Shown here in pieces: positions 1,613-2,871 of a DNA stretch of 5,993 nucleotides (within the stretch, counting starts at the first letter, position 1; each line of letters starts with the position of its first letter). The translations under genes and the position numbers were made by a program. The DNA is from a virus. Lineage: Duplodnaviria > Heunggongvirae > Uroviricota > Caudoviricetes. The stretch lies in IMG/VR virus record IMGVR_UViG_2778261058_000003. One strand, written 5' to 3'. The notes beneath the pieces are model-generated. The model saw nothing but the letters and a program-made list of their open reading frames with translations, ran no database searches and was not told the DNA's origin.

Positions 1613-2137
1613 TTATTCAGGCGAGCGAATCTGTTCCGCACAATGCAACAATGCTTCTGTCACTTCCTTAAGCGTTACGGTATCGGCATCATCCAGTCCT
1701 GCAACTTTTGCGTGCCTGACAAACGCCGCGCGAAGCTCGTCAAACGCCACCGCCCGTACATCAGCCAGGAAAGCATCTGTAGCCGGGGTTTGCGGCATAC
1801 CTCCGTCTGTTGCGCAGATATACGCATCAGATAGTTCATCCTGCTCGCCATCAAACACGTAGCAACTCTGTACGATAAATTTATTCAGCCCCGCATTCTC
1901 CGCCGCCAGCGCCATGCGTTCTTTCTCAAGTCGGAAAATTTCAGTCACGTATTTGGCGTTTTCACCCCCCTTGATTAACTCGTTAATTCGTTTGCTTTTA
2001 ATTTCCAGTTCATCCAGCAGTTCCAACACAACCTGAGGTGTGGCTTTCATACGAAATGCCAGCAATTTTTGTGGTGTGGCTGCTATTTTTATTGCTTCTG
2101 CCGCCCCACGCAGTGCCTGATAGTCAATCTTGCTCAC
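1613..2137 (-). CDS. Ead/Ea22-like phage protein (putative)
   Basis: 174-aa ORF. N-terminus MSKIDYQALRGAAEA resembles the conserved N-terminal region I recall for Ea22-like prophage proteins. GTG start (complement 2135..2137) with AAGGAG 7 nt upstream; 14-nt overlap with the upstream ORF. Confidence 0.5.
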   Translation of the reverse strand: MSKIDYQALRGAAEAIKIAATPQKLLAFRMKATPQVVLELLDELEIKSKRINELIKGGENAKYVTEIFRLEKERMALAAENAGLNKFIVQSCYVFDGEQDELSDAYICATDGGMPQTPATDAFLADVRAVAFDELRAAFVRHAKVAGLDDADTVTLKEVTEALLHCAEQIRSPE

Positions 2138-2390
2138 TGGTTGTCTCCTTTTTCCATGTTTTCAGACTTTCACCACAGAACGGACAAAATGAAACCCGCA
2201 CTGGTGATTTAGAAAATTCACCGGAACGCAACATCACCAAATCAGGGCCGCGAGTTAAACTCTCATTCCAGATTTTGTATATCAGCAGACCTTTTCGCGT
2301 CGTGTATTCAGCATCATGCTCAAGGGATTTTGCCAGTGCCGTACACGGTTCTATCTTGTTGCCATAAACCAGGCATTTTGATTTACCCAC
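2124..2390 (-). CDS. Small Cys-rich protein (88 aa), possible zinc ribbon (C-x9-C ... CPFCG)
   Basis: GTG start at complement 2388..2390 preceded by AAGGAGG with a 6-nt spacer. Overlaps the methyltransferase stop by 8 nt and the Ea22-like start by 14 nt. Contains a C-terminal CPFCG motif. Confidence 0.5.
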   Translation of the reverse strand: MGKSKCLVYGNKIEPCTALAKSLEHDAEYTTRKGLLIYKIWNESLTRGPDLVMLRSGEFSKSPVRVSFCPFCGESLKTWKKETTSEQD

Positions 2391-2871
2391 TGGTTGCCTC
2401 CTTCATAAAAATAATCCAATGTGTTTTATCGTTCTTACCAGTGCGCTGGCTGATGATTGGTTTCACGTCGGTCAGTGCCAATATCTGGCGGACAGATATT
2501 TGCGTTTCATTCCATTTAAAAATCAGAACGCCATGTGGCCACAACACACGAAAGGCTTCTTTAAATCCCTGCCGCAAATCATCACGCCAGGTATCTTTAT
2601 TCAGCCGTCCATATTTCTTTCCCATCCAGGCATTATCACCAATACGCTCAAGATGCGGAGGGTCGAATACAACAACCGGAAACGTTGCGTCTGCAAATGG
2701 TAATGCACGAAAATCTGCTATCAGGTCAGGGCTAATAATCAGGCGTCGCCCATCGCACAATGTATGCTCTTCCTTTCTGATATCGCTAAATATCGCCCGG
2801 TCGTCATTCTTATCGAACCAGAACATACGGCTGCCACAGCACATATCAAGAATGGTTGCCGGTGTACTCAC
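2383..2871 (-). CDS. Small SAM-dependent amino-methyltransferase, probable orphan DNA (N6-adenine or N4-cytosine) methyltransferase
   Basis: 162-aa ORF. Motif I-like LDMCCGS near the N-terminus and motif IV-like VVVFDPPH about 65 aa later, the pattern of amino-methyltransferases (D/N/S-PP-Y/F/H). GTG start at complement 2869..2871 with AGGAGG 7 nt upstream. No adjacent nuclease gene is evident. Confidence 0.6.
   Translation of the reverse strand: MSTPATILDMCCGSRMFWFDKNDDRAIFSDIRKEEHTLCDGRRLIISPDLIADFRALPFADATFPVVVFDPPHLERIGDNAWMGKKYGRLNKDTWRDDLRQGFKEAFRVLWPHGVLIFKWNETQISVRQILALTDVKPIISQRTGKNDKTHWIIFMKEATSG

Follow-up and report, generated by a model that had tools for sequence, protein, structure and literature searches.

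This study concerns two overlapping genes, encoding a predicted methyltransferase of 162 amino acids (aa) and a four-cysteine protein of 88 aa, in a 5,993-nucleotide stretch of the Caudoviricetes virus record IMGVR_UViG_2778261058_000003 (IMG/VR), hereafter called the window. Its open reading frames and their matches to Pfam and PHROG identify the window as the immunity and early-right region of a lambdoid/Rac/Qin-type temperate phage of enterobacteria, and the same stretch is present at 99.2% identity within a prophage in the chromosome of Escherichia coli Br_190_kylling. Both genes lie on the minus strand, the methyltransferase gene at 2383–2871 and the 88-aa gene at 2124–2390. An initial annotation had read them as a tightly coupled pair; our analysis indicates that they are independent genes and does not support the coupling.

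The methyltransferase gene starts with a GTG codon (2871–2869, read from the sequence), whose first nucleotides form, with the TGA stop of the preceding DUF977 gene, a shared GTGA (2868–2871). The start is preceded at 7 nucleotides by the Shine-Dalgarno sequence GGAGG (2883–2879, minus strand), and the gene ends with TAA at 2385–2383. This GTG start is correct, since all relatives conserve the segment ILDMCCGS, which lies 5' of the first ATG (Met16). In at least one genome annotated by RefSeq/PGAP (locus L001, 6260–6703, NZ_CP182387.1), the gene is begun at Met16, which yields a protein of 147 aa and loses motif I (LDMCCGS); the region concerned is 2826–2871 of the window. At least two RefSeq records also bear the name 'TRM11 family methyltransferase', which no NCBIfam match backs. 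The 88-aa gene likewise starts with GTG (2390–2388), 6 nucleotides 3' of the Shine-Dalgarno sequence AAGGAGG (2403–2397, minus strand), and its start overlaps the methyltransferase stop by 8 nucleotides (2383–2390, GTGGGTAA). Both reading frames initially placed in 2124–2871, as well as their 8-nucleotide overlap, are thus real features of the minus strand, with closest homologues that are 99% (methyltransferase, E 4.5e-108) and 98% identical (88-aa protein, E 1e-47).

The distribution of the two genes does not suggest a partnership. A megablast census of 5,426 complete E. coli genomes, by which copies below about 80% identity are missed, detected the enzyme gene in 878 genomes (about 16%) and the 88-aa gene in 346, with the two adjacent in 23 (counted when a match spans 80% or more of the combined pair). 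In 80 viral contigs carrying the enzyme, the gene immediately 3' of it was examined. The 88-aa gene was found at this position in none of the 80, the genes present there falling into about 50 unrelated groups, and one contig holds a 40%-identical relative of the 88-aa protein about 900 bp upstream of the enzyme. Seen from the other gene, the enzyme is directly upstream in one of the 21 loci that hold the 88-aa gene. Phage PhiR42_1 and Qin-type prophages have the enzyme but lack the 88-aa gene. The 88-aa gene, for its part, stands directly after DUF977 in one prophage (4-nucleotide overlap) and, with no methyltransferase upstream, after ead in Rac-SA53 (4-nucleotide overlap), while a homologue follows upf86.8 in phage P7 (8-nucleotide overlap), again with no methyltransferase upstream. 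Relatives also occur in the early regions of Mu-like, P22-like and Yersinia prophages, where no methyltransferase precedes them. The idea that upf86.8 of P7 could be a different methyltransferase was rejected, as it has no Pfam match and no similarity to the enzyme.

The two families also differ in size, that of the enzyme being about 65-fold larger, and the conserved adjacency by which a two-gene enzyme/partner module is recognized was not found across relatives. Overlaps are, in addition, common in this region: six of the nine junctions between consecutive minus-strand genes of the window overlap (by 4, 4, 8, 14, 4 and 1 nucleotides), so that the overlap between the methyltransferase and 88-aa genes is better seen as generic operon packing than as the mark of a special pair. 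The proposal that the 88-aa protein is a partner supplying specificity or regulation is therefore not supported, because adjacency is rare in the E. coli census and absent from the 80 viral loci, because other 5' neighbours overlap the 88-aa gene in a like manner, and because of the size gap between the families.

The most recurrent neighbour of the 88-aa gene is the Ead/Ea22-like gene downstream of it, which it overlaps by 14 nucleotides in the window. The same 14-nucleotide overlap joins Ead/Ea22 genes to 48%-identical relatives of the 88-aa protein in Mu-like prophages (loci L095–L097 and L099–L102, 3001–3860), in a context of DUF3164, GemA and Mor. This pairing is more recurrent than that between the 88-aa gene and the methyltransferase.

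The 162-aa protein exhibits the features of a class I methyltransferase dependent on S-adenosylmethionine (SAM), namely a Rossmann-like core of seven strands, a glycine-rich motif I and an acidic residue where strand 2 ends. The motifs first noticed in it, LDMCCGS (motif I, residues 8–14) and FDPPH (motif IV, residues 69–73), are conserved in 63 diverse relatives, and the latter conforms to the amino-methyltransferase pattern (D/N/S)PP(Y/F/W/H) following strand 4. Eleven positions are invariant in these relatives (D9, D30, R32, P48, P71, P72, E105, R108, K119, W120 and P138), and L8, C12, G13, D70 and H73 are nearly so. The AlphaFold (AF2) model, with a predicted local distance difference test score (pLDDT) of 95 and a predicted template-modelling score (pTM) of 0.89, consists of a single compact Rossmann-type domain. 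As this one domain takes up all 162 residues, no space is left for a target-recognition domain (TRD), in agreement with the initial remark that the protein is too short to carry one.

The enzyme belongs to a large family that is already catalogued. It matches PHROG 954, 'DNA methyltransferase', at E 4.7e-87 and, over its full length, the PADLOC models MTase_II (Type II methyltransferase, 1.3e-72) and oMTase (orphan methyltransferase, 2.8e-49). Its members fall into 7,824 clusters when grouped at 90% identity, with 2,030 representatives at the 50% level (E ≤ 0.001). Members with 44–65% identity over essentially the whole protein are carried by 254 deposited phage genomes, whose hosts include Streptococcus, Vibrio, Acinetobacter, Porphyromonas, Listeria, Gordonia, Lactobacillus, Enterococcus and Staphylococcus, among others. 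Databases already contain these sequences under the heading of phage orphan methyltransferases, and near-identical copies are annotated in many E. coli genomes. A longer form of 248–251 aa is common (P0016, P0064, P0010, P0027 and P0110) and was found in Leclercia, Citrobacter, Klebsiella, Salmonella and Enterobacter; its C-terminus is extended by a helical segment of about 88 residues. In the 248-aa form, this extension matches two groups labelled 'DNA methyltransferase', phrog_16025 and, over its final 70 positions, phrog_111, and thus looks like an accessory domain common to two methyltransferase families. In an ENA contig of 5.9 kb (L089, ERZ893784), a 43%-identical relative (5001–5456) accompanies a gene for a Microviridae major capsid protein (Phage_F). 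The relative is encoded on the strand that the remaining genes do not use, which is unusual for a small single-stranded DNA phage. YfdM of E. coli K-12, the 'putative methyltransferase' of CPS-53, was considered as a truncated relative; it is not homologous, and CPS-53 contains no relative of the enzyme.

The methyltransferase is an orphan, without a cognate restriction endonuclease in its neighbourhood. As initially reported, no nuclease adjoins it: its neighbours in the window (DUF977, 88-aa, Ead/Ea22 and DUF551 proteins, and others) include no nuclease and no defence protein according to Pfam, PHROG and PADLOC, and no nuclease gene is annotated beside it in the annotated loci that we compared; in the 80 viral loci, the check covered solely the gene immediately 3' of the enzyme. 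A degraded O157 remnant has an exonuclease pseudogene about 300 bp from its methyltransferase copy. Copies of the enzyme gene in degraded prophages are themselves pseudogenes. That of E. coli O157:H7 strain 4276 (L005, 4008–4481), beside yfdR-like genes, has an internal stop, and that of strain U90 (L006, 4126–4482), which follows DUF977 in a dicA-dicC Qin-type prophage, is cut to 118 aa.

Which molecule the enzyme methylates is best approached through sequence profiles. We compared the profile of the enzyme family by hhalign with nine class I methyltransferases of E. coli, each template being a single sequence. The two beta-class DNA adenine methyltransferases, YhdJ (92% probability, E 5e-7, residues 40–130) and an M.EcoGII-like prophage enzyme (92%, E 8e-7), came out on top. 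The RNA amino-methyltransferases RsmC, RsmD and YfiC obtained 16%, 2% and 1%, the protein amino-methyltransferase PrmC 0.4%, the protein methyltransferase PrmA 16% and the alpha-class DNA adenine enzyme Dam 0.5%; the small-molecule enzyme UbiG reached 45% over 14 motif-I columns only. BLASTP also aligns residues 45–118 of the window enzyme with the prophage beta-class enzyme (E 0.002), placing DPPH opposite DPPY. Sub-threshold matches to PF01555 were obtained in 10 of the 63 relatives, in the motif IV–VI part (best E 9.7e-4). The gathering threshold of PF01555 was not reached, and the window protein itself has no match to this family; the enzyme is not filed there because its motifs are in linear order (I before IV), whereas the beta class is permuted. 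Finally, the enzyme gene lies directly beside other DNA methyltransferase genes in several loci, of the MT-A70 (L013), C5 (L040), PF00145 (L090) and PF01555 (L091/L092) types. The profile affinity, the sub-threshold PF01555 matches, these neighbours and the C-terminal extension shared with a second methyltransferase family make DNA the likeliest substrate, and in our view a probable one. The leading aspartate of motif IV favours adenine over cytosine. An assignment to a non-DNA methyltransferase or to a non-methyltransferase family would have contradicted the first description of the protein as an orphan small amino-methyltransferase; PHROG, PADLOC and hhalign all side with DNA methyltransferases, and the description of a small, orphan, phage-borne amino-methyltransferase devoid of a TRD is supported.

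Several points weigh against the reading developed here, of two independent genes with a probable DNA methyltransferase, in addition to the use of single-sequence templates in the hhalign comparison and the identity limit of the census. Near-top Foldseek matches of the model are the RNA enzymes Trm11, Bud23, TrmN and RsmC and generic class I enzymes, M.TaqI appearing only at rank 29. It is also unusual for motif IV to have histidine as its fourth residue. The family has no dedicated Pfam entry, the 162-aa protein obtaining only sub-threshold generic matches (Methyltransf_11/25); at least two RefSeq records give it the 'TRM11 family' label; and our literature search found no experimental work on any family member, nor a report of substrate or specificity. 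High conservation across phyla without a variable domain would also fit a universal substrate other than DNA. NCBIfam yielded nothing useful for the protein, a sequence and profile search of the PDB gave nothing significant except PH0226, a protein of unknown function, and the enzyme is not listed in the E. coli methylome literature that we examined.

These points bear on an alternative that we regard as unlikely, in which the enzyme methylates host RNA or protein (for example an exocyclic amine of guanine or adenine in rRNA or tRNA, or the amide of glutamine) and thereby reprograms translation or blunts an RNA-targeting defence. In its favour are the closest solved folds, which include Trm14 besides Trm11, TrmN, RsmC and Bud23, the weak PDB sequence matches to Trm-G10 and RsmD-like proteins, the RefSeq name, the missing TRD and the 44–65% identity across phyla, which suggests an invariant substrate. 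However, the best fold matches have template-modelling (TM) scores of only 0.55–0.6, and the PDB sequence matches are non-significant (E 0.2–0.9). The fold comparison is indecisive on the substrate, and sequence profiles are more informative in this respect: they strongly favour beta-class DNA methyltransferases over RsmC, RsmD, YfiC and PrmC. The filing of the family under DNA methyltransferases by both PHROG and PADLOC, and the DNA methyltransferase genes that repeatedly adjoin the enzyme gene, also speak against an RNA or protein substrate.

The explanation that best accounts for the whole, to which we assign a probability of about 0.6, is that of two independent early-operon genes, encoding a minimal orphan enzyme, probably a DNA methyltransferase directed against restriction, and a separate accessory protein. 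The operon would be the early rightward one, in the order cI / cro / YdaT / O-like / DUF977 / methyltransferase / 88-aa / Ead. In the lysogen, the enzyme would be silent. Upon induction, the early rightward transcript would express it together with the replication proteins, and the enzyme alone could methylate the replicating phage DNA, so that the progeny would resist restriction in the next host. With a complete SAM-binding Rossmann core, motifs in linear order and no TRD, it would likely be an N6-adenine DNA methyltransferase that recognizes a short or relaxed sequence motif. The 88-aa protein would be a separate accessory, probably zinc-binding, that moves around among non-essential early regions in several types of phage. 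Neither protein would need the other, and the 8-nucleotide overlap would reflect no more than tight packing of the operon.

It is tempting to go further and to suggest that the core of about 155 residues is a self-sufficient minimal DNA methyltransferase, among the smallest, whose activity is non-specific or nearly so and which serves as a universal anti-restriction enzyme. Non-specific activity would explain both the missing recognition domain and the 44–65% identity observed among phages from five or more bacterial phyla; we nevertheless hold this stronger form to be doubtful. In a variant of it, the variable C-terminal add-ons may be interchangeable targeting modules. Candidates may include the 88 residues added at the C-terminus of the 248-aa form, P0074's zinc-ribbon-like tail and, conceivably, small zinc proteins encoded downstream.

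A prophage with a near-identical gene pair also carries a beta-class DNA methyltransferase of 348 aa (PF01555; L001, 1–719; L111, 536–1582). Its gene lies some 5 kb downstream, immediately ahead of tRNA genes, and the protein is related to M.RsrI and CcrM in the PDB. Since the same prophage holds both the 162-aa and the 348-aa enzymes, this phage encodes two methyltransferases.

Instead of protecting phage DNA, the enzyme could regulate host or prophage genes epigenetically in the lysogen, as PamA does (PMC12435837). Besides this precedent, its orphan status and its wide retention in prophages, including cryptic ones, are consistent with such a role. We nevertheless consider it quite improbable. 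The gene is located within a repressor-controlled early operon, and promoter-like sites, like terminator-like sites, are no more frequent in the window than in shuffled sequences; moreover, the copies in cryptic prophages are often truncated or interrupted by internal stops. The methylome study of Shiga toxin-producing E. coli (STEC) O111:H- reports no extra motif that could be attributed to the enzyme, carriage of the gene in those strains not having been checked, and the REBASE-based list of methyltransferases in that study does not include it (PMC6602927).

The 88-aa protein belongs to a much smaller family, for which a single-sequence search yields 65 clusters and a profile search 121. It matches PHROG 4030, a group of unknown function, at E 1.1e-37. 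All members for which an organism is named come from Enterobacterales, and all named ones are 'hypothetical'. Nine positions are invariant in 29 divergent full-length relatives: C6, C16, G57, F68, C69, P70, F71, C72 and G73. An early alignment had suggested that C6 is not conserved, which we rejected, as the sequences in question are N-terminally truncated and C6 is invariant in the broader alignment. 'Cys-rich', the initial description of the protein, applies only modestly, with four cysteines in 88 residues, all four invariant. Their invariance makes plausible a four-cysteine metal site formed from both ends of the chain, and the protein is probably a small zinc-binding protein, as judged from its sequence. 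The AlphaFold model (pLDDT 44) is unusable. Matches in Pfam (DUF6980, DUF7835 and zinc ribbons), in the PDB and to Lar are limited to the CPxCG knuckle and are all below threshold. Trm112 (PF03966) has no match in the 29 relatives at E ≤ 0.1, and hhalign gives 10% probability against YcaR, the Trm112-like protein of E. coli. The Lar model of NCBIfam (TIGR03655) scores 13.4 bits for a cut-off of 39.6 (E 0.073, over 16 residues), and the hhalign alignment with RalR/Lar covers 12 columns only. By these comparisons, the 88-aa protein is neither Lar nor Trm112.

These properties bear on whether the 88-aa protein could still be a dedicated partner of the enzyme, required for DNA recognition, activation or regulation in the way that Trm112 serves Trm11, Bud23 and Trm9, and translationally coupled to it for stoichiometry. 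The 8-nucleotide overlap, combined with a Shine-Dalgarno sequence proper to the 88-aa gene, could be read in this sense, as could the absence of a TRD from the enzyme, the Trm112-dependent enzymes among its top Foldseek matches and the cysteine pairs at the N-terminal and C-terminal ends of the 88-aa protein. Some relatives of the enzyme also have C-terminal add-ons, including a CxxC...C..H tail in P0074, and small CxxC proteins are encoded 3' of the enzyme in several viral loci. Against this stand the distribution data presented above: about 23 genomes with adjacent genes versus 878 and 346 carriers, the 88-aa gene 3' of the enzyme in none of the 80 viral loci, an enzyme family about 65-fold larger that crosses phyla whereas the 88-aa family is restricted to Enterobacterales, and similar overlaps of the 88-aa gene with DUF977, ead and upf86.8. 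In addition, the 88-aa protein has no similarity to Trm112, with no Pfam match and only the 10% already mentioned for YcaR, and hhalign shows no relationship between the P0074 tail and the 88-aa family. A dedicated partnership is therefore very unlikely. Least credible of all is a restriction-alleviation role, also raised initially, in the form of a Lar-type factor that would make up a two-pronged anti-restriction cassette with the methyltransferase: the prophage early location and the CPFCG motif, present in Lar/RalR at the N-terminus, are what suggested it, but the motif is C-terminal in the 88-aa protein and lacks the second CxxC that follows it in Lar, the Lar score is far under its cut-off over 16 residues, the RalR alignment is confined to 12 columns, and PADLOC has no match to the protein.

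The remaining genes of the window are as follows. The cI-like repressor (5042–5689) is encoded on the plus strand, and all the following genes are on the minus strand: Cro (4718–4945), a protein in the YdaT/cII position (4296–4721), the O-like replisome organiser (3325–4272), and the DUF977/Ren-like protein (2868–3284; Pfam DUF977, E 2.7e-33; PHROG 142). The DUF977/Ren-like gene comes after the O-like replication gene in the window, and in other prophages DUF977 lies directly 5' of either the methyltransferase or the 88-aa gene. Downstream of our two genes are the Ead/Ea22-like gene (1613–2137; Pfam Ead_Ea22, E 6.7e-10) and, beyond it, a minus-strand chain encoding a 205-aa protein, a DUF551 protein and a 131-aa protein. 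The latter (141–536; PHROG 1621, function not known) has a zinc-ribbon-like CC...CxxC segment followed by a coiled-coil tail, and obtained only weak, non-significant matches to the Cas12f TNB zinc-finger domain and to LmuB models. Within the O-like gene, a 13-nucleotide direct repeat is present twice (CTGACGGATCAGG and CTGACGGATCGGG, 21 nucleotides apart, 3795–3828), each copy including a GATC. These repeats sit in the part encoding the repetitive proline/aspartate-rich linker and, by analogy with lambda O, could be origin iterons. An Rfam scan of the window gave no match.

Taken by itself, the window adds one more copy of an orphan prophage methyltransferase that is already catalogued, next to a small gene unrelated to it, and this matters little. 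The enzyme family, on the other hand, deserves to be tested at the bench: it is present in 254 phages across phyla and in about 16% of complete E. coli genomes, without a Pfam family of its own and without a recognition domain. If it is indeed a DNA methyltransferase of relaxed specificity, a common anti-restriction device of phages would be explained, and a very compact enzyme would become available for methylation-based footprinting. Our analysis also corrects two annotations in RefSeq, the Met16 start that deletes motif I and the unsupported 'TRM11 family' name.

Each of the two proteins recalls known systems to a different extent. The 88-aa protein has in common with Lar/RalR (TIGR03655) a CPFCG zinc-knuckle and a prophage location, but only 12–16 residues align, and its motif is at the opposite end, with no second CxxC following. 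Six of the 29 relatives have weak matches, ending at CPFCG, to Pfam DUF6980, an uncharacterised family with a C-terminal CPxCG; all are sub-threshold (best E 0.0074, 17 bits for a 27-bit cut-off). The Trm112-activated class I enzymes Trm11, Bud23 and Trm9, top Foldseek matches of the enzyme model, are small catalytic subunits dependent on a small zinc-binding partner. Our enzyme differs from them in that it has no conserved partner gene and that profiles disfavour RNA amino-methyltransferases, with TM scores of only 0.55–0.6, and the 88-aa protein shows no similarity to Trm112 itself.

The closest resemblance in sequence is to the beta-class DNA N6-adenine/N4-cytosine methyltransferases (PF01555), such as YhdJ, M.EcoGII-like enzymes and M.RsrI. 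The catalytic half of the enzyme (residues about 40–130) aligns with theirs, DPPH with DPPY and FRVLWPHGVL with RVLKPxGS. In contrast to the permuted beta class (IV–VIII, TRD, X, I–III), the enzyme is linear, with motif I at 8–14, motif IV at 69–73 and no inserted domain; it is half the size, has no TRD, remains below the Pfam threshold and carries His in motif IV instead of the usual Tyr or Phe. Non-specific adenine methyltransferases are reported from Mu-like prophages (PMC3299994); compared by description and not by sequence, they are phage-borne and orphan like our enzyme. PamA of the Staphylococcus aureus prophage mPhi11, a protein of 141 aa with an NPPY motif, acts on GATC and is active without a partner (PMC12435837), and thus offers a precedent for an orphan DNA methyltransferase of very small size that is active in a prophage. 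Again by description and not by sequence, the enzyme resembles PamA in being phage-borne and orphan and in having its (D/N)PPx motif at about residue 65–70.

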